Shown in pieces: positions 10,190 through 24,114 of a stretch of DNA of 64,000 nucleotides. Location of the stretch: the NCBI GenBank assembly GCA_004552445.1, contig SFOJ01000007.1:9266-73265 (forward strand). The letters run 5' to 3'. Under the pieces are notes generated by a model. That model did no database searches and was not told where the DNA came from. It saw nothing but the letters and a program-made list of their open reading frames with translations. Both the position numbers and the translations under genes were made by a program. This stretch comes from Mollicutes bacterium (GTDB lineage: Bacteria; Bacillota_I; Bacilli_A; RF39; UBA660). Position 1 is the stretch's first letter, and the number at the start of each line of letters is the position of its first letter.

Positions 10190-10555
10190 ATGGATAAATC
10201 AGAAATTATAAAGAGTTTGGGTAAAAAAGGTAATGGTGAAATATATTTAGGAGTAGTAGGTGCTGTTCGAACTGGTAAAAGTACTTTTATTAAGAAATGT
10301 ATTGAAAATTTGATTCTTCCATATATCGATGATGAGATAGAAAAGAAAAGATGTATGGATGAAATACCTCAAACTGCGCAAGGTAAAACTATTATGACAA
10401 TAGAACCTAAGTTTGTTCCTAGTAGTGGCGCTAATATCAATATCGATGGATTAATTACAAATATTAAATTGGTTGATTGCGTTGGTTTTGTAACACCAAA
10501 TTCTCTTGGATATGAAGATGAACTTGGAAATCCTCGTATGGTTAAAACACCTTGG
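10190..10555 (+). CDS. spoIVA: Stage IV sporulation protein A, 5' segment (codons 1-122) of a split gene
   Basis: It contains GEIYLGVVGAVRTGKSTFIKK (Walker A), IPQTAQGKTIMTIEPKFVP, VDCVGF and PRMVKTPW. After W122 the ORF reads VLLNK-stop, which is element sequence. Confidence 0.9.
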
Positions 10556-10677
10556 GTGTTGTTGAATAAGTGATACCCAAATATAAAAATAAAGAAATAC
10601 CTTATAAAATAAGGATAAAAGGCAATATTTCACTTTATTAGTTAAAGGCTAAAATTTAGAAAGTGAGATATTTTTTT

Positions 10678-11661
10678 ATGGAAAATAAGGAAATTTTTAA
10701 AAATAGTGAATTAATTCCTTTGCTGATAAAATATGTTAAGGTAAATAAAGTTGTATTTCCTATTGAGAAAGTAAAGTATTTATCTAATGCAGAAGTTATA
10801 GATGTATTAAAGAATTGTATTGATAAGGAAGAAATATATAATCCTAACTATGAAATGGTTAAAAATATTACTTTATTAGATGATAATGATTTAAAAGATA
10901 TATACCCTCTTATAAAAGAAAGTATGGAAAAAATCAATTACGATTATATGAGAGATATTAAAGATTTAGTTAATAATGTTAAATCAAGAAAGAAAGGTAA
11001 AAAATATTCTTTTGAAGAACATTTAAAGGCATTAATAATTGCTCTACTTTCTAATCATAGATGGGGAGATAATAATATTAGGGAAAATATGGATGCTATT
11101 GATGAAATATTTCATAATTATAATAAGAATTATTTAAAAGTTGTTGAACCAAGTGTTTTAGTTAATAAGTTAAGGAAGATTCATTGCACTAACCCAATGA
11201 TTAGTTATCAAATGAAAGCATTATCTAAAAATATAATGGTATTAGAACAAATAGAAAAAGATTATGGAAGTTTAGATAAGTTTGTAAGTAAAGAAAAACC
11301 TAATGACATAGCAAATATGTTTAACAGTGGTAAATATAAATTAATACAAGTTGGACGAGCTTTTGCTTATGATTATTTAAAAAGAGTTGGAGTTAATACT
11401 TGCAAAAAGAGTTCTCAATTAGAAAGATTATTTGGTAGTCATAGACTAGGAATTGTTGAAAATGCTAATGCTACTGAACAACAAGTATTAAATATTATAA
11501 AAAAGATTGCTGAATTAAATAACTGTGATGAGATAATCGTAGAATCAATAATCCAACAATTTTGTTTATTAAGATCTGCTAACATTTGTGGAGAACACCC
11601 TAACTGCGAGAAATGTAAGATAAGAAATTATTGTCATTATAACAAGAGATATGATGATTAA
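10678..11661 (+). CDS. HhH-GPD/endonuclease III-like protein with a C-terminal 4-Cys cluster
   Basis: The C-terminus is C-x5-C-x2-C-x5-C (CGEHPNCEKCKIRNYC), like the EndoIII Fe-S loop. An HhH-like segment reads VGRAFAYDYLKRVGV. The EndoIII-like start of the core is ALIIALLSN. Confidence 0.4.
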   Translation: MENKEIFKNSELIPLLIKYVKVNKVVFPIEKVKYLSNAEVIDVLKNCIDKEEIYNPNYEMVKNITLLDDNDLKDIYPLIKESMEKINYDYMRDIKDLVNNVKSRKKGKKYSFEEHLKALIIALLSNHRWGDNNIRENMDAIDEIFHNYNKNYLKVVEPSVLVNKLRKIHCTNPMISYQMKALSKNIMVLEQIEKDYGSLDKFVSKEKPNDIANMFNSGKYKLIQVGRAFAYDYLKRVGVNTCKKSSQLERLFGSHRLGIVENANATEQQVLNIIKKIAELNNCDEIIVESIIQQFCLLRSANICGEHPNCEKCKIRNYCHYNKRYDD

Positions 11662-11670
11662 TGTAATTAA

Positions 11671-11698
11671 AGGTATGTTTAACGACATATCTTTTTTG
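11671..11698 (+). terminator. Hairpin terminator upstream of the mob gene
   Basis: AGGTATGT-ttaacg-ACATATCT (one G-U pair) is followed by TTTTT. Confidence 0.5.
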
Positions 11699-11726
11699 TT
11701 GTTTAAAAAGAAAGGAGAAATGATAT

Positions 11727-13019
11727 ATGGAATTAAATTATGCAATATTTAGAAGTGAACCTATTATGACTATACCTGATTTAGCCCAAATAGGATCACA
11801 TAATAAGCGAGAAAAGAAAGCTTATCAATCAAATAAAGATATTAAAATAGAATTAAGTAAAAATAATATAGAACTTGTTCCACTAGATATGAAATATACT
11901 AAAGGTTTTGATAAACTAACAAAAGAATATAAAAAAGAACACGAAGAAAGAATGAAAACTGAACGAGCTGATAGAAAGAAAAGATACCATGAAATGTTAA
12001 ATAGTTCCAAAAATTGTGTTGCTGATGAATTAATTTTTACTGCTACTCATACTTTCTTTGATGGTATGTCTAGAGAGCAAATAAAAGAATGGGCAGATAC
12101 TTGTATGGAATTTGTTTATAAAGATTTAGGTTATAAAAAAGAACAAATTTTACATGCAACTGTCCATTTAGATGAATTAACACCTCATGTTCATTGTGTT
12201 GTTGTTCCACTTGTTAAGAAATTGGATAAGAGAACTAATACTGAAAGATATACCATATCTAAAAAACAATATATTAGAGATAAAATACACCTATCACAAT
12301 TACAAGATATGTATCATAAAAGTCTAACTGAAAAAGGTTATGATCTAGAACGAGGTATTAAAGGTAGTGATAATAAACACATTAAAATAAAAGAATATAA
12401 ACAACTTACTAAAAAATTAAATCACGAATTAAATGCTAAAAGTGATAGATTAGATAAAGCGATGAGTGAGTTTGAAGAACAAATGAAAACAAATAAAAAG
12501 ATTCCTTTTGATAATAAACATGTTATTTTAGAAAAAGAAACTTTTGATAGTATGAATAATGTTATTAATGAATCTAAAAAAGTAATGGAATTGCAACCTA
12601 AACTACAAACAATATTTAATAAAGTTGATGGATATGCTAATAGTTATAAATATCTTGAAAAAGAAAACTTTAGATATAAAAAAGAGATAGATAATCTAGA
12701 ATCCAAAAATAATGATTTAGAAATGAGAAATAATAGTTTACTAAATAGAATATATTATGTATTTCAAATGTTAAAAAAATTCTTAAGAAAACTATTACAA
12801 CGAGGTAATGATTATACAAAAGATGAAACAAGTAAGTTTATTAAAAATTGTTATGATGAACAAGAATTTGATATGAATGATGTTGTAGGTATTTCTAGAG
12901 GTACAACTAAACAAGATGAATTATTCGATTATGTAGAAGCACCAGATTATTTAAAATCTAGAGTTAAAGATTATGATGAATATGAAAAAGATAAAGATGA
13001 TTTTGAAATGAGTTTATAA
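11727..13019 (+). CDS. mob: MobV-family relaxase (Mob/Pre plasmid recombination enzyme)
   Basis: It contains HATVHLDELTPHVHCVVVPL (HxDE..PHxH motif), an N-terminal AIFRSEP...HNKRE, and a long coiled-coil C-terminus. Confidence 0.8.
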   Translation: MELNYAIFRSEPIMTIPDLAQIGSHNKREKKAYQSNKDIKIELSKNNIELVPLDMKYTKGFDKLTKEYKKEHEERMKTERADRKKRYHEMLNSSKNCVADELIFTATHTFFDGMSREQIKEWADTCMEFVYKDLGYKKEQILHATVHLDELTPHVHCVVVPLVKKLDKRTNTERYTISKKQYIRDKIHLSQLQDMYHKSLTEKGYDLERGIKGSDNKHIKIKEYKQLTKKLNHELNAKSDRLDKAMSEFEEQMKTNKKIPFDNKHVILEKETFDSMNNVINESKKVMELQPKLQTIFNKVDGYANSYKYLEKENFRYKKEIDNLESKNNDLEMRNNSLLNRIYYVFQMLKKFLRKLLQRGNDYTKDETSKFIKNCYDEQEFDMNDVVGISRGTTKQDELFDYVEAPDYLKSRVKDYDEYEKDKDDFEMSL

Positions 13020-13051
13020 TTTTAAAAAAATATTCTTGATTTTTATCATGT

Positions 13052-13285
13052 TTAGAGTGATAAATAGTTTGACCTAAAATAATTCTCAACTGGCAAATGA
13101 TAAATTGAAGTAGATTCCATAACAACAACTAAATTTGGATAATCTTTAATTAAATTATATAAATTATCAAATTCAATTTTATTATGTTCAATAAAAGACG
13201 CATCAATAATTGTATTTCTTAACTCATCAATAAAACAATAAACACTTTTTCCTTTAGCAATATCAAAACTTAAGATATGTTTCAT
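13052..13285 (-). pseudogene. IS110-family transposase, N-terminal 77-aa remnant
   Basis: SFDIAKGKS...VVVMESTSIYHLPV matches the DEDD/RuvC-like N-terminus of IS110 transposases. The ORF stops far short of the usual length of more than 300 aa. Confidence 0.6.
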
Positions 13286-13480
13286 AAATTTCTCCTTTCA
13301 TAAATATTTCGGTTAATACCATATGAGATTACCTATATTCCTACACGCTTAATCATCCGAACTCTAACGTTCCATTATCTACAACCGAATTTATAAATAA
13401 CCATATGGCAGACATTCATAAAATCGCACTCGAAGTGCCTGTTATAATCCGTCTTTACCGATGTTTGTTATAATAACAAA
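13286..13480 (-). ncRNA. Structured, GC-richer leader upstream of the IS110 remnant (possible bridge/seek RNA remnant)
   Basis: This is the position where IS110-group elements encode their guide RNA. Visible hairpins include GCACT-tcg-AGTGC, TTCGGTT/AACCGAA and two CCATATGG/TCATATGG palindromes. Confidence 0.25.
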
Positions 13481-13652
13481 AAACATAAAAATTTCAAAAT
13501 TTTAAACTTGAAATCTTTATGTTCAACATTATACGTGATATAATATAACTGATAGATAAATAGTAATATATTTGTAAAGTAGTTCAATTTTAGAATGATC
13601 TTTTATATGGTATAATGATTGTATTGTTTTTGTTACAGATTGGAAGTGAATT

Positions 13653-14357
13653 ATGAATCAAGAAAAAATAGGTAAATTTATTTTAAAACTTAGAATGGAT
13701 AATAATTTATCACAAGCAAAATTTGCTGACAAAATTGGTGTAACATATCAAGCAGTTTCAAAGTGGGAAAATGGTAGAGGTATACCAGATATAGAAATGT
13801 TAAAAAAAATCAGTGAAGTGTTTGATGTTGATATTGACGAAATAATTAACGGAGAAAAGAAAAAACAAAAATCAAAGTATAATTTAAGTTTATTAATTGC
13901 ATCAGTTTTTGGAATAGTAGTAATTGTATTATTTTTATTAATTACAATTTTTTTTAACAAAGATAATATTAATGTTGCAAATATAAATTCAATAGAATCG
14001 AATTTTTCAGTTAATGGAGTAATTGTATCGGAGAACAATTCTACTATGATACATATTTCTGATATTAGAGTTAATAAAGAATTAGATAAGAAATTTTATT
14101 CTATAGAATCAATGTTATACGAAGATAACAATAAAAATTATAAAATTATATCAGAATATAAAAGTATAGCCAATAATAATGAAACAAAAAACTTAGACGA
14201 GTTATTAAAAGAAGTTAAATTTGATATTGAAAATTATTCTGATTCTTGTCCAAATATATCAACACACAATTTTTACATTGTAATAAATGCACTTGATGAA
14301 GAAAAAAATAAAATCAATTATAAAATACCCTTATCTTTAGAAAATAAGTGTTCATAG
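13653..14357 (+). CDS. Membrane-anchored XRE-family HTH regulator
   Basis: The N-terminus LSQAKFADKIGVTYQAVSKWENGRGIPD is followed by a TM helix (LLIASVFGIVVIVLFLLITIFF) and an extracytoplasmic domain. Confidence 0.7.
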   Translation: MNQEKIGKFILKLRMDNNLSQAKFADKIGVTYQAVSKWENGRGIPDIEMLKKISEVFDVDIDEIINGEKKKQKSKYNLSLLIASVFGIVVIVLFLLITIFFNKDNINVANINSIESNFSVNGVIVSENNSTMIHISDIRVNKELDKKFYSIESMLYEDNNKNYKIISEYKSIANNNETKNLDELLKEVKFDIENYSDSCPNISTHNFYIVINALDEEKNKINYKIPLSLENKCS

Positions 14358-14468
14358 TTATCTAAACGCATCGTTTATAAAATAAAACATTGCGTTTATT
14401 TTTTTTTACACTGAACTAATTTATAATTAATTTTGGAAAGGAAAAGTTATAATAGAAGAGGTGTAAAA

Positions 14469-15182
14469 ATGAAAAAAATAATATTTATATTTTTGGGAAT
14501 ATTGTCAATCGGATTATTACTTCCAAATAAAGTAAATGCAGAAACAAATATTACGAATTTTGAAGATACAATAAAAGAGGAGATTAAAACATTTAAAGGA
14601 CAATCTGGTACCGAAGAATATATTAAAAAATTAGAATCTGCTGATTTATCAAATTATAAAGAAAGTGATGATAAAGTAAACATTTATATGTTTAGAGGAG
14701 ATACATGTAGTTATTGTTTAAAAGCAGTTACATATTTTTCTACTATAGTAGATAATTATGGAGACAAATTTAATTTAATAACTTATGAAGTATGGAAAAA
14801 TTCTGATAATGCTAAATTAATGGATGAAGTTGCCAAGACACTCGGAGAAGAACCAAACGGAGTTCCATATATAATAATTGGTGATAAATCATTTACGGGT
14901 TATAGTGAAGAAATGAACTCCCAAATTGAATCACAAATCAATAAAGTATATAAACAAACTGATAGATATGATGTTATGAATAATTTAGATAGTGGTACCA
15001 CTACTATTAAAGAGGTTAAGTCAAATAACACTTCGTCATCATCTATGGTTTGGCTATTTATTTTACAAATTATTTCTATATTAGGTTTGATCATTTATGT
15101 AAATAAAAATAATAAAAATATTAAACAAAAATTAGAAGAACTTGAAATGAAAGTTAATAAGAATGCAAAATCTAAAAAGTAA
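14469..15182 (+). CDS. Secreted/membrane-tethered thioredoxin-fold protein (CSYC motif)
   Basis: It has a signal peptide MKKIIFIFLGILSIGLLLPNKVNA, the segment MFRGDTCSYCLKAV...VPYIIIGD, and a C-terminal TM helix. Confidence 0.6.
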   Translation: MKKIIFIFLGILSIGLLLPNKVNAETNITNFEDTIKEEIKTFKGQSGTEEYIKKLESADLSNYKESDDKVNIYMFRGDTCSYCLKAVTYFSTIVDNYGDKFNLITYEVWKNSDNAKLMDEVAKTLGEEPNGVPYIIIGDKSFTGYSEEMNSQIESQINKVYKQTDRYDVMNNLDSGTTTIKEVKSNNTSSSSMVWLFILQIISILGLIIYVNKNNKNIKQKLEELEMKVNKNAKSKK

Positions 15183-15882
15183 AATAATTTTTATTGTAGT
15201 GTTAGTATTATGTATTTTTTCTTTCTTTGCAATATCTAAAGTTGCAATTATACATAATAATGATACTGATAGTATTAAATTTAAAGAGGAATATGAAAGT
15301 TTAAATGGCAAAAAATATAAAAATAAAAAAATAAGAGATGTTAAAATAGAAAAGGATAATCCTTTTGTATATAAAACAGCTGAAGAAATAGTAGACTTAA
15401 TAGAAAATGGTGAATCATTTATAGTATATTTTGGCTTTAGTAAATGTCCTTGGTGTAGAAGTATGATTGAAACTTTTATTAAAACAGCAAAAGAAAATAA
15501 TATAGATAAAATATATTATGTTGATATAGAAGAAATTAGAAATGTAATAGAATATGATAAGGACGGTAATTTAGTAACTACTAAAAATGGTACTCCAGAT
15601 TATTATGATTTAGTTAACAAACTAAATAGTGTTTTAAATCAATATACATTAAATAATAATGGAGAAGAAGTTGCTATTGGAGAAAAAAGGATATATGCCC
15701 CTAATGTTGTATTAGTAAATAATGGGGAACCTGTTGAAATGATTGATCCAATTGAAAATATTATTAAGGATCCTGCATCAGAAATTACAAAAGAACAAAA
15801 AGAAGAAATGTCTAATAAGATTAAATGTCTATTTTCATGTATGAAAAAAGGAAATACTTGTAGTATTAAAACGAAGTGTTAG
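15163..15882 (+). CDS. Membrane-anchored thioredoxin-like protein (CPWC motif)
   Basis: It has an N-terminal TM helix and FGFSKCPWCRSM in a thioredoxin-fold context. It overlaps the upstream gene by 20 nt. Confidence 0.6.
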   Translation: MQNLKSKIIFIVVLVLCIFSFFAISKVAIIHNNDTDSIKFKEEYESLNGKKYKNKKIRDVKIEKDNPFVYKTAEEIVDLIENGESFIVYFGFSKCPWCRSMIETFIKTAKENNIDKIYYVDIEEIRNVIEYDKDGNLVTTKNGTPDYYDLVNKLNSVLNQYTLNNNGEEVAIGEKRIYAPNVVLVNNGEPVEMIDPIENIIKDPASEITKEQKEEMSNKIKCLFSCMKKGNTCSIKTKC

Positions 15883-15971
15883 AAGAAAAAATATTAATTA
15901 CAATTGGAACAATAACAACATTAGTTTTGGGAATTTAACATTAAAAGTTATTCCTTTTTTTGATTATAGTC

Positions 15972-16025
15972 TTGACAGTTGAACGATTATTCAATTATAA
16001 TGTTAATAGTTGAGCGATTATTCAA
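15972..16025 (+). promoter_or_regulatory. cad promoter with two copies of an ArsR/CadC-type operator
   Basis: TTGACA (15972-15977), an 18-nt spacer, then TATAAT (15996-16001). The operator TTGAaCGATTATTCAA (15979-15994) repeats as TTGAgCGATTATTCAA (16010-16025). Each is a TTGAA-N6-TTCAA palindrome, with centres 31 bp apart. Confidence 0.7.
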
Positions 16026-16042
16026 TTAAGGAGAGATAAATT

Positions 16043-16396
16043 ATGATTAGTGATTGTAGCATCATACATGAAGATATGGTAAATAATATTAAAACATTAT
16101 TACCTGTTGATGATACTTTTATCAAAACTTCTAGTTTTTTTAAAGTATTAGGTGATAAAACTAGAATTAAAATATTATGGATTTTAAATGAGGGAGAATT
16201 ATGTGTTTGTGATATTGCAATTTTATGTAATATGACTAAGTCAGCAATTTCGCATCAATTATCATTTTTAAAGCAAAATAATATTGTTAAATCAAGAAAA
16301 GATGGAAAAGAAGTTTTTTATTCATTAAAAGACAATCATGTTAAATTTATGCTTGAAAATAGTATTAATCATATTATAGAAAAGGAGATTGATTAG
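16043..16396 (+). CDS. cadC: ArsR/SmtB-family metalloregulator (CadC-like)
   Basis: It contains FKVLGDKTRIKILWIL..GELCVCDI...MTKSAISHQLSFLK. Confidence 0.8.
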   Translation: MISDCSIIHEDMVNNIKTLLPVDDTFIKTSSFFKVLGDKTRIKILWILNEGELCVCDIAILCNMTKSAISHQLSFLKQNNIVKSRKDGKEVFYSLKDNHVKFMLENSINHIIEKEID

Positions 16397-16399
16397 AAA

Positions 16400-18241
16400 A
16401 TGGAAAAAGAAGAAAAAATAAACTTATTTAGAATTATAACTACAATTATTTTATTTGCAATTACATTTATACCTAGTTTAAATAGTAATATTAAGATTAG
16501 TTTGTATATTATTTCGTATTTAGTTATTGGAGGAGACATTTTAATAAATGCCATCAAGAATATTTTTAAAGGTGAATTATTTGATGAAAATTTTCTTATG
16601 TCACTTGCTACTGTTGGGGCATTAGTTATTGGAGAATATCCTGAAGCTATTGCTGTAATGTTATTCTATCAAATTGGTGAATTATTTCAGGATATGGCAG
16701 TTGAAAAAAGCAAAGCTAATATAACTAAATTGATGGATATTAGACCAGATTTTGCTAATATTGAGCATAATGGTAATTTAGTACAAGTAAGTCCAGAAAA
16801 GATAAATATTGGTGATATTATAGTTGTAAAACCTGGAGAAAAAATACCATTAGATGGTATTATTGTTTATGGTAAATCTAGTTTAAATACTACAGCCCTA
16901 ACTGGTGAATCTATTCCTAGAAGTGTTAATGTAGATGATGAAGTATTAAGTGGTTGCATTAACTTATCTTGTTTAATTAAAATAAAAACAACATCAACAT
17001 TCGGAGATTCAACTGTTTCCAAAATTTTGGATTTGGTTGAAAATGCAGATAATAGTAAAGCAAATACCGAAAAGTTCATAACTAAATTTGCTAAAATATA
17101 TACGCCAGTTGTAGTTATTCTTGCTGTTCTTTTAGCAGTTATTCCATCATTAATAACTGGTGAATGGTTAGAATGGATAAACAGATCTTTAATTTTCTTG
17201 GTAATCTCATGCCCATGTGCTCTTGTTGTTTCTGTTCCTTTAAGTTTTTTTGCTGGAATTGGTGGAGCAAGTAAAAATGGTGTCCTTATAAAAGGTGCAA
17301 ATTATCTTGAAGCTTTAGCAAATGTAAATACAATTGTATTTGATAAAACTGGCACACTTACAAAAGGAAATTTTAAAGTAGTCGCAATTCATCCTGAAAA
17401 AATAACTGAAGAGAAATTGTTAGAAATAGCAACACTAGCAGAACAATTTTCTACACATCCTATTTCTATTTCATTAAAAAATGAATATAGTAAAGAACTT
17501 GATAAAAATAGAGTAAAAGATATAGAAGATATACCTGGAAAAGGGATTAAGGCAACCGTTGATAAAAAACAAGTATATATAGGAAATGATAAATTAATGA
17601 AATACATTGATGTTCATTATGAAAATTGTGAAAAAGAAGGTACTATTTCTCATATCGTAATTGATGGTGAATATGCTGGACATATAGTTATAACTGATGA
17701 AATAAAACCAACTTCAAAAACAGCATTAAATGAATTAAAGAACTTAGGTGTAGCAAAAACAGTTATGTTAACAGGTGATAAAAAAGAGGTTGGAGAATCA
17801 ATTGGATTTGAATTGGGATTAGATGAAATAAAAACTGAATTACTTCCAGTTAATAAAGTTGAAGAAGTTGAAAGATTAATTAAATCAAAAAACAATGATA
17901 AAGAAAAAATAGCATTTGTTGGTGATGGAATAAATGATGCACCAGTATTAAAAAGATGTGATATTGGAATATCTATGGGTGGACTTGGAAGTGATGCAGC
18001 AATTGAAGCATCTGATATTGTTTTAATGAATGATGACCCATCTAGCATTGCAAAAGCAATTAAAATTTCAAGAAAAACTTTAAAGATTGTAAGACAAAAT
18101 ATTATTTTTGCATTAGCAGTTAAACTTATTGTTCTTATTTTAGGAGCATTAGGCATTGCTAATATGTGGGAAGCAGTATTTGCTGATGTAGGAGTATCAT
18201 TTATTGCAATATTAAATGCATTAAGATGTATTAAGGATTAG
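16400..18241 (+). CDS. cadA: P1B-type heavy-metal translocating ATPase (Cd/Zn/Co type) without an N-terminal HMA domain
   Basis: It contains the CPC motif (VISCPCALVVSVP), DKTGTLT, TGES, MLTGD and VGDGINDAP. Confidence 0.85.
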   Translation: MEKEEKINLFRIITTIILFAITFIPSLNSNIKISLYIISYLVIGGDILINAIKNIFKGELFDENFLMSLATVGALVIGEYPEAIAVMLFYQIGELFQDMAVEKSKANITKLMDIRPDFANIEHNGNLVQVSPEKINIGDIIVVKPGEKIPLDGIIVYGKSSLNTTALTGESIPRSVNVDDEVLSGCINLSCLIKIKTTSTFGDSTVSKILDLVENADNSKANTEKFITKFAKIYTPVVVILAVLLAVIPSLITGEWLEWINRSLIFLVISCPCALVVSVPLSFFAGIGGASKNGVLIKGANYLEALANVNTIVFDKTGTLTKGNFKVVAIHPEKITEEKLLEIATLAEQFSTHPISISLKNEYSKELDKNRVKDIEDIPGKGIKATVDKKQVYIGNDKLMKYIDVHYENCEKEGTISHIVIDGEYAGHIVITDEIKPTSKTALNELKNLGVAKTVMLTGDKKEVGESIGFELGLDEIKTELLPVNKVEEVERLIKSKNNDKEKIAFVGDGINDAPVLKRCDIGISMGGLGSDAAIEASDIVLMNDDPSSIAKAIKISRKTLKIVRQNIIFALAVKLIVLILGALGIANMWEAVFADVGVSFIAILNALRCIKD

Positions 18242-18275
18242 AAAATTACAATTTCTACAGCAGATTAAAAGTGAA

Positions 18276-18455
18276 AACCGAGCCAAAAGAAACATTGTAA
18301 CTAATGGCTCGGTTAAGCCTAGTTCTTGACGACTAGGTAACACACTACCAAGTCGGCATTTTGCCAACTAGGAATAGTGTGCAAAGGGACACCCTTTTGA
18401 AACCCAATAAGCAACATTTCACAAACTATCGTAAGTGAATGTTGCTCTTTTTTAT
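18276..18455 (+). other. GC-richer, densely structured non-coding island ending in a terminator
   Basis: Hairpins are AACCGAGCC/GGCTCGGTT, CCTAGT/ACTAGG and CACACTA/TAGTGTG, with a nested GGCA-ttt-TGCC. The terminator is GCAACATTTCAC/GTGAATGTTGC followed by a T-run. Confidence 0.4.
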
Positions 18456-18635
18456 TTTGTCTTGCGACTACATAAAAAAGAAAGAATACTATCGCCACTT
18501 TCATTGCTAAAGCAACAAAACGTGCCACGTATTCTTTAAATAAAAATAACCTAATACCTAATTTAACGAAAGGGTAAAAGGTTATTTTTTTCTTTTGCTA
18601 TGCAAAAGTAAGGATTATAAATTTACTTCATAAAT

Positions 18636-19064
18636 TTATTTTTTCTTATTTAGTAATTCCGATGTTTCTTTTTTAGCACTCTTAATTGCCATGAATACAA
18701 ATAATTCATATAAAAGTGTAATTGCAAAGAAACCACATACTAAATAAATATTATTTCTAACATCACTATTTATCATATCAATAAACTCTATTCCTAAATA
18801 TATTAATCCATAGAATACAGTAGATACAACTGTTATATCATTATATGATCTTCTAATTGACTTGCCCTCGTTTTGATTTATTTCAATTAACCCTTTATCT
18901 ACCTCATATATAAACATTACAATTAAAAATATTAAAATAGGAATTAAAATCCAATATAAAGAATAAGTAAGTTTATTATTAAATATGATAGTTAGTATTA
19001 AAAATAATCCTACAATAAAATTCACTACTACTAATAATTTTTTAATTATATTACTTTTTAGCAT
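18636..19064 (-). CDS. Small four-TM membrane protein co-transcribed with the XRE repressor
   Basis: The profile is hydrophobic. It overlaps the upstream regulator gene by 14 nt. Confidence 0.5.
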   Translation of the reverse strand: MLKSNIIKKLLVVVNFIVGLFLILTIIFNNKLTYSLYWILIPILIFLIVMFIYEVDKGLIEINQNEGKSIRRSYNDITVVSTVFYGLIYLGIEFIDMINSDVRNNIYLVCGFFAITLLYELFVFMAIKSAKKETSELLNKKK

Positions 19065-19554
19065 TTTTATTTCTCTCCTTTACTTTTAAACTTTGAATAA
19101 GTTTGATTATTTCTTTTGATGAATTAATTTGATATGTATGATCTTCGATAGTATGTATTAATAACTCTTTTTGTTCTTCTGGTAAATCATCTTTTTCTAA
19201 TTCTTTTTTACATGTAGAAACTATACTTTCAGAATTTTCTATACTTCCTAAAACATTTATTTCAGCAGTATCTAATTGTTCTAGATTTAAACTAGCATAA
19301 TGACTCTTAACAAAATAATTAAGTTGTGTCACTTCTAATCCTAAACCTATCATATACATTAAGTCACTATAATTAACATCTATTATATTACTTATCTTTC
19401 TTAATATTTTAGGACTAGGATCTTTTCTTATACCTGATTCTATTTTAGAAAGTTCAGAGTTATTAATCTTTGCAAGTTTCGCAAGTTGTCTTTGCGATAA
19501 ACCTTTCTTTTCTCTAGCTTCAGCAATAACTTCGCCGATATTTTTTTCTAGCAT
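19051..19554 (-). CDS. XRE/cI-like HTH repressor
   Basis: It contains KGLSQRQLAKLAKINNSELSKIESGIRK and is divergent from the rightward genes. Confidence 0.75.
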   Translation of the reverse strand: MLEKNIGEVIAEAREKKGLSQRQLAKLAKINNSELSKIESGIRKDPSPKILRKISNIIDVNYSDLMYMIGLGLEVTQLNYFVKSHYASLNLEQLDTAEINVLGSIENSESIVSTCKKELEKDDLPEEQKELLIHTIEDHTYQINSSKEIIKLIQSLKVKERNKNAKK

Positions 19555-19582
19555 AGAAATTCACCTCACACCATAATAATAC

Positions 19583-19708
19583 ACCCAGTGGGTAAAAAAG
19601 TCAACATAATTTCAATAAATGGGTAAAAAAGTGTTGACAATATAGTAATTAGCATGATATATTAAATATGTTTCCAAATGAACCCACTTTTAAATTAAAT
19701 GGGTAACA
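19583..19708. promoter_or_regulatory. Divergent promoter/operator region with repeated TGGGTAA / ACCCA motifs
   Basis: The sites are ACCCAgTGGGTAAAAAAGT (19583-19601), AAATGGGTAAAAAAGT (19618-19633), AACCCACT (19681-19688) and AAATGGGTAAC (19698-19708). The rightward promoter is TTGACA (19634-19639) with TGaTATATT (19655-19663). Confidence 0.55.
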
Positions 19709-19736
19709 TAGAAAAAGAAAGGAGGAAATCAAATGT

Positions 19737-20003
19737 ATGAGATTAAAAAAACAACTAGAATTAATTGATCCAAGAGTATGGAGAGATAAAAATATCAAGT
19801 TTGAAACGAAGCTGATATACAAAATACTCTGTGCGGAACAATCCCAAAGATGTGAATTCACAAGTATAAGTATCGGGAGAGTTCAAAAGAAATTGAGTAT
19901 AACAAATGTTGGATTCAAGAAGAACCTAAAAATATTAGAAGATAACAAATATATAAGGTTCAATGAATACGACCGAGGATTATACACATACGAGATTTGT
20001 TAG
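19737..20003 (+). CDS. Small winged-helix DNA-binding protein
   Basis: The RBS is AAAGGAGGA. The segment ISIGRVQKKLSITNVGFKKNLKILEDNKYIRF is HTH-like and paralogous to 20291-20572. Confidence 0.5.
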   Translation: MRLKKQLELIDPRVWRDKNIKFETKLIYKILCAEQSQRCEFTSISIGRVQKKLSITNVGFKKNLKILEDNKYIRFNEYDRGLYTYEIC

Positions 20004-20065
20004 AAAAGATTAAATCACTAACAAATAAAGGTTCAGTAAATGTTCGTAGATTTATATTAGAACCT

Positions 20066-20257
20066 ATCTTATAGAAATATAAGATGAACTAGTTTGAAGT
20101 AAAACATATTTCAAAGAACGAAATAAAAGAATAAAAGGGATTGAAATATGTTATGTATGTTTTACTTCAAGCAACCTATTTAGTGAGATTTATCTCACAC
20201 AGGGATTTTATTGTCATTATTAGTATGACTTGTAAGTAGTGTTTACAAGTTTTTTTA
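20066..20257 (+). other. Non-coding region with four hairpins, including a long interrupted inverted repeat, ending in a terminator
   Basis: Hairpins are ATCTTATA/TATAAGAT, TTGAAGTAAAACATATTTCAA (20094-20114) paired with TTGAAATATG...TGTTTTACTTCAA (20141-20170), and GTGAGA/TCTCAC. The terminator is ACTTGTAA/TTACAAGT followed by T7. Confidence 0.45.
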
Positions 20258-20290
20258 TTGCCTAAATTTAAAGGAAAGGAGATTGATAAT

Positions 20291-20572
20291 ATGAATAATA
20301 GCGATATTACTAAATTAAAGCATATAGAGGTGCCTACAATAGTTTTATTAGATGAAGAACTATCTTCTACTACTAAACTATTAATGGGTTTAATTAATAC
20401 CCTATCTATGCAAGAGGGATTTTGTTATGCAAGTAATAAGTATTTAAGTAATCTTTTAAAAGTATCTAAAAGAACGATTACTAGTTGCATAACATCATTA
20501 AGAACAAAAAAATATATTAGAGTTGAAAATGAACCTAATATAAGAAGAATCTATTTAGCAGATTTCTGCTAG
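20291..20572 (+). CDS. Winged-helix DNA-binding protein (replication-initiator/DnaD-N-like HTH)
   Basis: The start is at MNNSDITK after AAAGGAAAGGAG. The HTH-like segment is YLSNLLKVSKRTITSCITSLRTKKYIRVE. Confidence 0.45.
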   Translation: MNNSDITKLKHIEVPTIVLLDEELSSTTKLLMGLINTLSMQEGFCYASNKYLSNLLKVSKRTITSCITSLRTKKYIRVENEPNIRRIYLADFC

Positions 20573-20722
20573 ATGTAATAGCAAGATACTGCTAGTGAGT
20601 ATAGCAAGTATCTTCTAACAGAATAAATAATATAATAAATAATATTAATAGATAATATAAATTTAAAATTATTTTAATAATTTAAATCTTTAAAAAGATT
20701 AAAAAGAAAGGAAGTTATAAAA

Positions 20723-21142
20723 ATGGAAATTGATTTAAACGAAATTATAATATCTGGAACTATTAATAATGTGACAGATAATAATAAAGATTATATTAAG
20801 TTTGGTTTAACCACTCTTAAATATGATAAAAGGAAAGTTTATGCTAGTTTTAATATTAACCGAAATCTTTATGAAATATATAAAGATTTTTTTGTTAAAG
20901 GAACAAGAGTTTTTGTTAAAGGTTATCTTAATTCTTATATTACAAATGAAAGAATACAAAGTTTTATTACTGTGACTGATATATCAGACAATAAAGATGA
21001 AATGATGAACGGAAGAAAAGGTCCTCATATAAGACTTGATTCAGACGGTGTTGAAGTTTGGGATGGAAAAAGATGTGAAGCAATTCCACCCACTGAAGAA
21101 GAACTTAAAGAAATGGAAGATATGCTAAAAGAATATCAATAG
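20723..21142 (+). CDS. OB-fold, SSB-like protein
   Basis: The N-terminus LNEIIISGTINNV...IKFGL...VFVKGYLNSY resembles an SSB OB-fold. The tail is acidic. Confidence 0.35.
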   Translation: MEIDLNEIIISGTINNVTDNNKDYIKFGLTTLKYDKRKVYASFNINRNLYEIYKDFFVKGTRVFVKGYLNSYITNERIQSFITVTDISDNKDEMMNGRKGPHIRLDSDGVEVWDGKRCEAIPPTEEELKEMEDMLKEYQ

Positions 21143-21217
21143 AAAGGTGTGATAATTTATGAAGAATAGTAATTTTTATAAACTATTACACATAAAATTC
21201 ATTGTGGAGGAATAATC

Positions 21218-21400
21218 ATGTATGAAACACTAGAATTTTATGATAGTAATGGTTGTGATTTAAAAGAAGTCTTAAAAAGTTGTATATATAAATATTATAT
21301 GGCTTATAAAAATTCATCAAAAGTATTTAAATCGGACGCAAAAAATAGTATAATTAATTCAACTAATAAAGTGAATGTGTTGTCTACTGAAAGGAGATAA
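21218..21400 (+). CDS. 60-aa protein immediately upstream of the recombinase (candidate directionality factor)
   Basis: The RBS is GGAGGA. Its stop lies 3 nt before the recombinase start. No recognizable motif was found. Confidence 0.4.
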   Translation: MYETLEFYDSNGCDLKEVLKSCIYKYYMAYKNSSKVFKSDAKNSIINSTNKVNVLSTERR

Positions 21401-21403
21401 AAA

Positions 21404-22933
21404 ATGTATAGTAGATATGCAATAGACAATACGATTTTTAAAATAGCCATTTATATAAGACTATCTCGTGAAGATGGTGATGATATGGAATCAGAAAGTG
21501 TCACTAATCAAAGAAGTTTATTAATTGGTTATTTAAAAGCACAACGCCCAGAGTTTAAGAGAATGTTAAATGACATTGAAAATGGAAAAATAAACATGGT
21601 TATTACTAAAGATTTATCAAGATTAGGTCGTGACCATATAATGACTGGTTATTATGTTGAAACATTTTTCCCAGAAAACGATGTTAGATATGTTGCCGTA
21701 AACGATGATATAGATACTTTTTTTGAAACAAGTGGCTCTGATATGATGCCATTTAGATTAAGTATGAATGATATGTATGCAAAAGATATTTCTAAAAAAG
21801 TTCGTTCAAACTTACTTCAAATGAAAAAAGATGGAAAGTTTTGTGGAAGTTCTGCACCTTATGGTTATATGAGAGATCCTTTAGACAAACACAAACTAGT
21901 ACCTGATCCAGAAACTGCTCCTGTAGTAAAAAGAATTTTTGATTTATATGTTGCAGGTTATGGTAGCTCACAAATTGCTGAAATACTAACAAGAGAAGAA
22001 TTACCAACACCAGTTATGTATAAATACTCTGATTCAAAATTAAATAGATTTGACCATCCTGAAATATGGAAACACACATCTGTCAGTAATATCATCAAAA
22101 ATAGAGTTTATATTGGAGATTTAATTCAACACAGATTTCAAAAAGTGAATTATAAGATTAAGAAAAGAAAAAGTGTTCCTGAAAGTGAATGGTGTATTAA
22201 AGAAAATGCACACGAACCACTTGTAGATAGGAAAACATTTGAAATCGCACAATCTATTAAAGATTCATCAAATAATTATAATCCTGAACGAAGAAATGTT
22301 GATTATGTTTTATCTGATTTAGTATTTTGTAAAGATTGTGGTGCTAGAATGAGTATTAGTTATGATAAGAAAAGAGATAGAGTCACAATGAATTGTAATA
22401 ACTATCGTAAGTTTAGTAAGTATGATATATGCTTTTCTCACTATATTAACTATACAAAACTAGAAAACACAGTCTATGACAAGTTAAGTACTATGGCTAA
22501 TCAATATATTAATGATAAAGAAGAATTTGAAAATATTATTAAAAGCCAATATGTTGATCCAAAAGCAGATAAACTAAAAAAGATAGAAGAATTAAATCAT
22601 ACAATAAATGATTTAAAAAGAAAACAAGACTCTTTATATGATGATAAATTTAATAATGTTATAAGTGTAGAAACTTATCAAAGATTATTTAATGCTACTG
22701 AAGAAGATATTAAAACTGCAAAAGATAAACTAGAACAATTACAAAATGAAATATCTAGTATTAATGATGATTCTTCTTGTTATGTAGAATATTTAGATAT
22801 TATTAAAAGTTTTCTAGATATGAAAAATCCAACAAGAGAAATCATGAATAGATTAATAGATAAAATATATGTAACGAAAGATAAAAAACTAGAAATTCAT
22901 TATAGAATTAAAAAAAGTGAAGTATTAATATAG
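21404..22933 (+). CDS. Large serine recombinase (resolvase/invertase N-domain, recombinase domain, zinc ribbon, coiled coil)
   Basis: It contains IAIYIRLSREDG (nucleophile Ser), ITKDLSRLGRD, PYGYMRDP, VVKRIF, a Cys-rich C..C..(22)..C zinc-ribbon region and a C-terminal coiled coil. The DDGxSG block appears to be missing. Confidence 0.85.
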   Translation: MYSRYAIDNTIFKIAIYIRLSREDGDDMESESVTNQRSLLIGYLKAQRPEFKRMLNDIENGKINMVITKDLSRLGRDHIMTGYYVETFFPENDVRYVAVNDDIDTFFETSGSDMMPFRLSMNDMYAKDISKKVRSNLLQMKKDGKFCGSSAPYGYMRDPLDKHKLVPDPETAPVVKRIFDLYVAGYGSSQIAEILTREELPTPVMYKYSDSKLNRFDHPEIWKHTSVSNIIKNRVYIGDLIQHRFQKVNYKIKKRKSVPESEWCIKENAHEPLVDRKTFEIAQSIKDSSNNYNPERRNVDYVLSDLVFCKDCGARMSISYDKKRDRVTMNCNNYRKFSKYDICFSHYINYTKLENTVYDKLSTMANQYINDKEEFENIIKSQYVDPKADKLKKIEELNHTINDLKRKQDSLYDDKFNNVISVETYQRLFNATEEDIKTAKDKLEQLQNEISSINDDSSCYVEYLDIIKSFLDMKNPTREIMNRLIDKIYVTKDKKLEIHYRIKKSEVLI

Positions 22934-22946
22934 GTAAAAATACGAG

Positions 22947-22965
22947 TTGCTTCCAAGCAATTTTT
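22947..22965 (+). terminator. Terminator after the recombinase gene
   Basis: TTGCTT-cc-AAGCAA is followed by TTTTT. Confidence 0.55.
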
Positions 22966-23004
22966 AAAAATAAAATTAGGTATCACAAAAACAGGTCATA
23001 CTGG

Positions 23005-24114
23005 TTTAGTGAAGAACTTCCATTTGTAGAAGCTGCTGAAATTGGAACAGAGAAAGTTATTAAAGATCATGCTACTATAGGAATAGTGGTAACTACTGAT
23101 GGAAGTATATTAGACTTACCTAGAAGTAATTATGTACAAGCTGAAGATAAGGTTATAAATGAACTTAAAAGTATTAATAAGCCATTTATAGTCATTATGA
23201 ATAGTGCTCATCCAATGTCTAATGAAACTATTAGTATGAGTGAAGCTTTAAAAGAAAAATACGGTGTACCAGTAATACCAATTAGTGTTGAAAATATGAC
23301 TGAAAGAGATATTACTGAAATATTAAAAGAAGCTTTATATGAGTTTCCAGTTGATCATATAGAGTTTAATATACCTGATTGGGTAGGAGTATTAAAAAGT
23401 GATCATCCTTTAAAGCAAAAGTTTATTACTAAAATGAAAGATTCTATTGTTAATGTTGATAAACTAAGAGATGTTGAAAATATTAATTTAAATCTTGAAG
23501 ATAATAGTGAAATTACTAAAGCATATATTTCTAAACTTGATACTGAAAACTCTGAAGTAACTATTACTATGGAAGCAAGTGATGAACTATTTAATGAAAT
23601 ATTAAAAAGTGTTGTTGGAACTTCTGTTAATAGTAAAGGAGATTTATTAAAAGTATTTCAAGATGTTAGTGAGGGAAGAAGTGAATATGAAAGCATAAAA
23701 GGTGCTTTAAAACAAGTGTATCAAACTGGATATGGTATAGTTCTTCCTAGAATTACGGATATGAAGCTTGATAAACCTGAAATTATAAAACAAGGTGGAA
23801 GATTTGGAATTAAACTTAAAGCTAAAGCATCAAGTGTACATATGATTAAAGTTGATGTAGAAAGTAGTTTTGAACCTATTATAGGAAGTGAAATACAAAG
23901 TAAAGAATTAATAGACTATATAATGAAAGATAATGAAGATCCAGAAAAAATATGGAAAAGTGAGATATTTGGAAGAAGTCTTAGTGAAATAGTTCAAGAG
24001 GGTATTCAAGCTAAGTTATCATTGCTCCCAGATTCTGCTAAATATAAATTATCTCAAACTATAACTAAGATGGTTAATAAAGGAAGTAATAATTTAATAG
24101 CTATAGTATTATGA
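23005..24114 (+). CDS. spoIVA: Stage IV sporulation protein A, 3' segment (codons 123-491) of a split gene
   Basis: The frame is open from 23005 and reads FSEELPFVEAAEIGTEKVIKDHATIGIVVTTDGS...KPFIVIMNS...LYEFPV... through to the conserved C-terminus ...NNLIAIVL. No start codon or RBS of its own is needed. Confidence 0.9.
   Translation, partial: FSEELPFVEAAEIGTEKVIKDHATIGIVVTTDGSILDLPRSNYVQAEDKVINELKSINKPFIVIMNSAHPMSNETISMSEALKEKYGVPVIPISVENMTERDITEILKEALYEFPVDHIEFNIPDWVGVLKSDHPLKQKFITKMKDSIVNVDKLRDVENINLNLEDNSEITKAYISKLDTENSEVTITMEASDELFNEILKSVVGTSVNSKGDLLKVFQDVSEGRSEYESIKGALKQVYQTGYGIVLPRITDMKLDKPEIIKQGGRFGIKLKAKASSVHMIKVDVESSFEPIIGSEIQSKELIDYIMKDNEDPEKIWKSEIFGRSLSEIVQEGIQAKLSLLPDSAKYKLSQTITKMVNKGSNNLIAIVL

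Follow-up and report, generated by a model that had tools for sequence, protein, structure and literature searches.

The interrupted spoIVA locus

We analysed a stretch of 64,000 nucleotides (nt) from a Mollicutes bacterium (contig SFOJ01000007.1; hereafter the window), in which the sporulation gene spoIVA is interrupted by an integrative mobilizable element of 12,449 base pairs (bp). The element lies at positions 10556 to 23004 (+ strand), one copy of a shared TGG being counted. The 5' fragment of spoIVA (10190 to 10555, +) holds codons 1 to 122, the last of which is TGG for Trp, and the 3' fragment (23002 to 24114, +) runs from codon 122 to the stop. When 10190-10555 is joined to 23005-24114, the product is a protein of 491 amino acids (aa) that matches TIGR02836 from end to end with 619 bits (cut-off 459.9). 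The break falls at Trp-122 in the motif RMVKTPW|F, and 76 intact alleles from other species read through this region unbroken as ...MVKTPW[F/Y]....PF..AAEIG. Because Trp has no synonymous codon and the motif is conserved in every allele seen, every host offers an identical core.

The reconstructed 491-aa SpoIVA is encoded intact on 196 other contigs, one of whose sources names it "stage IV sporulation protein A [Mollicutes bacterium]". In the window the 5' open reading frame (ORF) spans 10190-10573, running five codons (VLLNK) into the element, and the resulting 127-aa fragment with its VLLNK tail is found on 20 contigs. Counted by exact sequences, the intact allele is thus commoner than the occupied one in this species (196 versus 20 contigs). 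Removal in silico of the three elements seen end to end gave SpoIVA proteins of 491, 489 and 492 aa with no scar, both halves of the gene being intact in all three, and across the joint the restored ORF of the window is identical to the empty site of the same species. The gene is cited as a target of sigma-E (PMC5025042) and has been described as universal in spore-forming Firmicutes (bioRxiv 10.1101/2022.02.25.481979).

Junctions and boundaries of the element

Four contigs of the same species with an intact spoIVA (L141-L144) served as empty-site references. Their flanks are 99-100% identical to the window at the nucleotide level and their gene order is the same: SecA, a 163-aa gene, spoIVA and then genes of 188, 62, 155 and 393 aa. 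Homology with the empty site stops on the left at window position 10555 and begins again on the right at 23002, so that on the empty site the two alignments overlap by exactly three bases, TGG. In two other same-species pairs of occupied and empty sites, L094 with L073 (99.5%) and L099 with L043 (98.5%), homology also starts at TGG.

The left junction reads ...aaaacacct TGG gtgttgttgaataaGTGATACCc and the right junction aGGTATCACaaaaacaggtcatac TGG tttagtgaag. The bases around TGG are t and g at the left junction and c and t at the right one; since these adjacent bases differ, TGG is the only sequence common to both, and it is likewise all that both junctions and the empty site have in common, as a very short core in direct orientation. 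The left attachment site (attL, 10529-10578, +) comprises a host arm (10529-10552), the core TGG (10553-10555) and an element arm (10555-10578) that carries GTGATACCC at 10570-10578, the first eight bases of which, GTGATACC, occupy 10570-10577. In the right attachment site (attR, 22978-23027, +) the element arm (22978-23001) carries (A)GGTATCAC at 22978-22986, with GGTATCAC itself at 22979-22986, and is followed by the core TGG (23002-23004) and a host arm from 23004. The outer extent of these sites, about 24-25 bp per half-site, is borrowed from the model of a Listeria integrase and may differ here.

An earlier reading of the letters alone (the sequence-only reading) had placed the two TGG copies and the two repeats at these positions, had taken TGG to be the sole sequence shared by the junctions, and had proposed a discrete site-specific insertion at 10556-23004 by a serine recombinase. 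All four strings were located exactly there, and the single shared TGG was borne out by the flanking bases and by the empty-site alignments. The reading had named empty alleles with other boundaries as evidence that would overturn it; in L141-L144 the boundaries held. That a serine recombinase was responsible is supported by the large serine recombinase gene that adjoins the right end and by more than 20 host alleles in which these ends abut one and the same codon of spoIVA. The junctions are a textbook attL/attR pair of a large serine recombinase, and they give the ends of the 12.4-kb element to the base.

The inverted repeat and the attachment site of the circular form

Joining the right end of the element to its left end gives GGTATCAC-N15-TGG-N14-GTGATACC. 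With TG as the central dinucleotide (10553-10554 in attL, 23002-23003 in attR, +) the arrangement is exactly symmetric, GGTATCAC-N15-TG-N15-GTGATACC, and the predicted joint of the circular form (attP) reads AAAACAGGTCATACTGGGTGTTGTTGAATAAGTGATACC. The sequence-only reading had foreseen a repeat nearly perfectly centred on circularisation, which was confirmed, and a palindromic attP, which applies in part: the outer 8-9 bp are symmetric, whereas the site as a whole is not a palindrome. The arms match at 14 of 26 positions, made up of a perfect run of eight bases and scattered inner matches, and the symmetry of the inner arm is weak in the window (positions 1, 9, 10 and 13). Among 200,000 random joints of window sequence, with three registers each, a symmetric perfect run of at least eight bases had a probability of P = 0.003, a value which taken by itself is suggestive.

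Much stronger evidence came from an alignment of half-sites from related elements, a comparison that the earlier reading had itself proposed. Eight right-end (attR) and six left-end (attL) half-sites, belonging to recombinases 54-100% identical, were read toward the TG. All 14 have GGTATCAC at positions 16-23, counted from the TG centre, while the inner 15 positions vary, even between subfamilies. Position 24 is G in 11 of the 14 half-sites; the attR arm of the window has A there (22978). The 15-base spacing is kept in contigs L136, L137 and L139 despite spacers unrelated to those of the window. The joint thus has the form of an attP: some 50 bp long, pseudo-palindromic, and with an outer motif at equal distance from the core on each side.

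In the crystal structure of a Listeria integrase bound to attP, the half-site is 25 bp long and the zinc-ribbon domain reads a continuous 9-bp motif (the ZD motif) at positions 16-24 (PMC3783163). Because the inverted repeat agrees with that motif in size and position, it may be the binding motif of the zinc-ribbon domain in the window family as well. The TGA that ends the truncated 5' frame of spoIVA (window 10570-10575) falls within GTGATACC; in other subfamilies the frame stops earlier, and the presence of a stop codon inside the repeat is probably incidental.

A recombinase family at one spoIVA codon

Every copy of the element family that we saw sits at the same codon of spoIVA. A scan of metagenome contigs for the right-end pattern returned 33 contigs, all of them attR sites joined to spoIVA, in which the end GGTATCACRAAAACAGGTCATAC is followed by TGG and then by the spoIVA of the host; at least 20 different host sequences are represented. 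Left ends, reached by looking up the left-end gene, gave attL sites in eight host alleles, in each of which host ...CCN TGG is followed by GTG..nnTGAATnnGTGATACCC; one identical element left end was found in four different host alleles. In contig L005 both ends are visible and delimit a 10,602-bp element in spoIVA.

The gene for the recombinase adjoins the right end in every family member. Close homologs, 80-92% identical and all of 528 aa, lie at the same position, and recombinases of 54-70% identity also abut the 3' part of spoIVA (L136, L137 and L139). In L136 (1-11587) a recombinase about 68% identical ends a conjugative element, with a coupling protein, a VirB4-like ATPase and an M23 peptidase, at the same spoIVA codon; the recombinase clade therefore serves conjugative as well as mobilizable elements. 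L137 holds an element with biosynthetic cargo. A minimal element of 6,750 bp lies in spoIVA in L139 (4848-11600), with no relaxase gene called; it contains a signal-peptidase-like gene, a 1258-aa Big_3 surface protein, a bPH_1 protein, a small ORF and an intact recombinase, and recalls a domesticated, skin-like element.

One sample, ERZ28573677, contained an element of the window type (left-end protein 100% identical, L119) in another host species together with the species of the window carrying an empty spoIVA (L143). This co-occurrence is consistent with recent transfer between species within one gut community. The occupied allele is also present in samples ERZ28574477 and SRR32508445.

The recombinase of the window copy

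The large serine recombinase of the element (21404-22933, +; 509 aa) adjoins attR and scores above the cut-offs for PF00239 Resolvase, PF07508 Recombinase and PF13408 Zn_ribbon_recom; a weak match of residues 364-473 to SMC-type proteins was read as coiled-coil character. Its closest solved structure is the catalytic domain of TnpX (E = 5.5e-27, gapless over 111 residues), and its closest annotated relative from a plasmid record is TndX, with 35% identity over 96% of the length.

Homologs of the protein have 522-530 aa, against 509 aa in the window. The difference arises from an in-frame deletion of 57 bp after base 21544, with 2 bp of microhomology at its edges, which removes 19 residues (NLVAVDIYVDDGYTGTNFE) after Gln-47, including the motif DDGYTG. 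Ser21 and the motif SRLGRD are still present; the catalytic domain is not intact, a defect confined to the window copy. The deleted block aligns to GFENIRHFTDDGFSGVNFN of TnpX, and we take it to comprise the second beta-strand of the resolvase fold and the equivalents of Asp36 and Ser39 of Tn3 resolvase. Asp36 is one of six residues whose mutation abolishes the activity of Tn3 resolvase, D36A cleaving at less than 1e-4 of the normal rate (PMC2794168).

The DDGYTG block is intact in all homologs, including the neighbour L140, which shares 99.9% identity with the window along the 693 bp that lead to the deletion point, and the exact 509-aa protein occurs on a single contig in a collection of 15 billion proteins. 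Judged from these sequences, the deletion would be either private and recent or an assembly fault in the source record. The recombinase of the window is probably inactive, and a search of the window with tblastn found no second recombinase able to act in trans. If the deletion is real, the element could probably no longer be excised by its own enzyme, and its sites would be inert unless a related enzyme acted on them in trans; with its crippled recombinase, the window copy may be an element that has become locked in place naturally.

Gene content of the element

The insert is an integrative mobilizable element and not a prophage. It has its own integrase and a relaxase, and no conjugation pore family was found among the ORFs scanned. 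Base composition does not mark it out, the GC content being 22-32% throughout. The leftmost backbone gene (10663-11661, +) encodes a protein that ends in a motif of four Cys residues (C-X5-C-X2-C-X5-C), similar to the iron-sulfur loop of endonuclease III. It is kept at the left end of the mobilizable members of the family, one homolog being named 'endonuclease III' by JGI, and gave no match in Pfam or PHROG. The relaxase that follows (11727-13019, +) is of the Mob_Pre (MobV) type (PF01076, E = 3.4e-29) and is also kept in related elements.

Cargo specific to the window copy occupies 13653-18241 (+) and comprises a helix-turn-helix (HTH) regulator, two thioredoxin-like membrane proteins, an ArsR repressor (16043-16396, +) and a P-type ATPase (16400-18241, +), so that the element carries metal-resistance cargo. 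At the homologous position other members carry RhuM and a C1 peptidase; Fic, VanZ and Rce1-like genes; a nine-gene operon with NUDIX and nucleotidyltransferase genes; or ASCH and an acetyltransferase. A 77-aa ORF in the cargo region (13052-13285, -) is a remnant whose similarity to IS110-family transposases covers just their first 70 residues (E = 1.2e-7).

The conserved right-hand backbone includes a divergent HTH_3 regulator (19051-19554) and a small membrane protein, which together span 18636-19554 (-). An HTH_36 protein (20258-20572, +) resembles replication initiators, matching replication initiation families of PHROG with E values down to 1.8e-11, and HTH_36 proteins lie at homologous positions in relatives; a conserved 139-aa protein follows (20723-21142, +). 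The 60-aa, 139-aa and 88-aa backbone proteins gave no informative match in scans of Pfam, NCBIfam and PHROG. Between the stop codon of the recombinase and the attP arm lies a hairpin (22944-22966, GAGUUGCUU...AAGCAAUU, -6.5 kcal/mol, z = -3.1) followed by a T-run. L001 and L005 retain its stem, with other bases. A terminator scan 3' of the recombinase gene found none, the weak hairpin and T-run failing the thresholds of the scan.

Excision and sporulation

Directly upstream of the recombinase gene lies a conserved 60-aa ORF (21218-21400, +). Each of the eight elements compared has a homolog of 42-70 aa that lies directly before the recombinase start or overlaps it (among them L001 9816-9998, L005 9805-9999, L136 9808-10020, L137 9820-10008 and L139 9891-10019), with ten invariant residues in the pattern MY..E...D...KSCI..YY. 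It matched no family in scans of Pfam, NCBIfam and PHROG and is a candidate accessory or directionality factor. Twenty nt upstream of it is a sigma-E-like promoter match (21170-21198, +; TAATTTT-N14-CATAAAAT), which we take to differ by one mismatch in each promoter element from the sigma-E consensus of Bacillus subtilis. The motif is kept in L001, L005, L120 and L128.

The skin, SPbeta and gin elements are excised in the terminal mother cell, where excision restores the interrupted gene (PMC5025042, PMC5595907). The small ORF, the promoter match, the mother-cell target and the intact recombinase of L139 resemble these systems and raise the possibility that excision is developmental at the level of the family, a proposal to which we give somewhat less than an even chance. 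Stated in full, and held just as tentatively, the proposal is that a clade of recombinases (at least 54% identity) has specialised on Trp-122 of spoIVA, and that its carriers, which are mobilizable, conjugative and minimal elements of uncultured gut Bacilli and Clostridia, are spoIVA-intervening elements excised early in the mother cell under a sigma-E-type promoter, with the small ORF as an accessory factor. The gene for the ATPase of the spore-coat basement layer would then be controlled by a programmed DNA rearrangement.

Against such a switch, the promoter is a consensus match only, in a genome of about 25% GC where 21 matches of equal quality occur in 128 kb on both strands. Other evidence on the same side suits a simpler explanation, in which spoIVA is a safe harbour, conserved and dispensable in growth, excision serves transfer only and is untimed, and the carriers are poor sporulators. 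Disruption of dispensable genes is common among mobilizable elements that use site-specific serine recombinases (PMC5704250), and TnpX and TndX, the closest characterised enzymes, excise without a directionality factor. The excess of intact over occupied alleles in the species of the window and the broken recombinase of the window copy fit this explanation too. It accounts less readily for a target that, like those of skin, SPbeta and gin, is a sporulation gene expressed in the mother cell, for a sigma-E-like match that precedes the pair of small ORF and recombinase and is kept in relatives, for a 6.75-kb element that has no relaxase gene called and yet retains both an intact recombinase and the small ORF, and for spoIVA halves that are intact in all three cases seen in full. 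We regard insertion into a safe harbour, with no developmental role, as possible and on the whole rather doubtful.

Proposed mechanism of integration and choice of crossover

Whatever the timing of excision, attL and attR were very probably made by a TnpX/TndX-like large serine recombinase when a circular mobilizable element of 12,449 bp entered spoIVA at its Trp-122 codon. The circular form would carry an attP of about 48-50 bp, GGTATCAC-N15-TG-N15-GTGATACC. By analogy with Listeria, a recombinase dimer would bind this site with its zinc-ribbon domains on the invariant outer motif (16-24) and its recombinase domains on the variable inner bases. Cleavage and exchange would take place at a 2-bp core within TGG, most likely TG, and recombination of attL with attR would remove the element without a scar and restore spoIVA.

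The core might instead be GG (10554-10555 and 23003-23004), which is also common to both junctions; every attL element arm seen has G right after TGG, and identity of sequence by itself accommodates GG as well as TG. With GG as centre the motif would fall at 17-24 on one arm and at 15-22 on the other, whereas TG puts both motifs at 16-23 wherever both ends are seen (the window, L005 and L139), as in the symmetric half-sites of Listeria. As this symmetry favours TG, we consider TG the probable crossover and GG unlikely.

Several observations weigh against integration and excision as outlined here. Circular attP joints were absent from the 33 metagenome contigs that carry the right-end pattern, and the pattern had no match in viral contigs. 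With its own recombinase damaged, present-day activity at the sites of the window cannot be assumed. Symmetry is the only ground for choosing TG over GG. The arms of the empty target site (attB) match the outer motif, shifted 5 bp inward, at only four of nine positions per arm, which we judge to be the level of chance, so that a Listeria-type attB model was not confirmed.

An origin as a DDE-type transposon, in which the repeats would be terminal repeats and TGG a 3-bp target-site duplication, has a superficial appeal in the near-end inverted repeats, the 3-bp direct repeat and the 77-aa IS110 fragment inside the element, and was rejected as extremely improbable given repeats that lie 14-15 bp inside the ends, no intact transposase encoded, one identical codon hit in more than 20 host alleles and a serine recombinase gene adjoining the right end throughout the family.

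Comparison with known systems

The nearest parallels for the element as a whole are Tn4451/Tn4453 (TnpX and TnpZ) and Tn5397 (TndX) of clostridia. These too combine a large serine recombinase with a Mob_Pre relaxase and cargo genes for resistance, and their ends share an identical core of very few bases. The recombinase of the window family, at 528 aa, is shorter than TnpX, which has 707 aa, and the 2-bp core of Tn4451 is GA. Tn4451 has low target specificity, with a 2-bp identical sequence (PMC5704250), whereas the window family is strictly confined to one spoIVA codon with a TG(G) core. The window element works like Tn4451, yet lacks the low specificity of that family.

At the level of the attachment site, the attP of the Listeria phage A118 (LI) integrase (Rutherford et al. 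2013, PMC3783163) is likewise pseudo-palindromic, with 25-bp half-sites, a central dinucleotide and a 9-bp distal motif at 16-24. The window family has GGTATCAC at 16-23, followed by G24 in 11 of the 14 half-sites, and the sequence of its motif is unrelated to that of Listeria. The family thus provides a base-exact, comparatively validated attP/attB pair whose attB lies within one of the most conserved stretches of spoIVA, and its natural variation separates the fixed attP positions (16-24) from those free to change, information of use in mining and re-engineering serine integrases.

Mobilizable elements that disrupt genes by means of serine recombinases are known elsewhere, for example in rumA of streptococci, which is another target gene in another host group; spoIVA belongs to a developmental programme and a terminal cell line. 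The kind of site is well understood, and spoIVA as a target appears to be unreported: in the literature covered by a full-text search, no paper named spoIVA as the target of a recombinase, and a paper on Clostridium tetani that mentions spoIVA does so solely as a CRISPR self-target. New here are the choice of spoIVA as target, the range of the recombinase clade that inserts there, and the defective recombinase of the window copy. In uncultured gut Bacilli, mobilizable and conjugative elements have come by convergence to share spoIVA as an insertion site; for one species at least, the occupied form is a common polymorphism.

The sporulation-intervening elements offer a further comparison. In skin (SpoIVCA, in sigK), SPbeta (SprA/SprB, in spsM), gin (GirC/GirX, in gerE) and the skin element of C. 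difficile (CD1231/CD1234), an element with a large serine recombinase likewise interrupts the coding sequence of a mother-cell sporulation gene. Precise excision restores the ORF in those systems, and does so for the window element in silico only. The small ORF beside the recombinase gene of the window family may be compared with girX and sprB. The carriers in the window family are mobilizable or conjugative elements and the target is spoIVA, whereas the carriers in the known systems are prophage remnants. If excision from spoIVA is not developmental, the elements of the window family would be a recurrent route to the loss of sporulation in gut bacteria; if it is, spoIVA would join sigK, spsM, gerE, spoVFB and spoVR as a sporulation gene subject to rearrangement.

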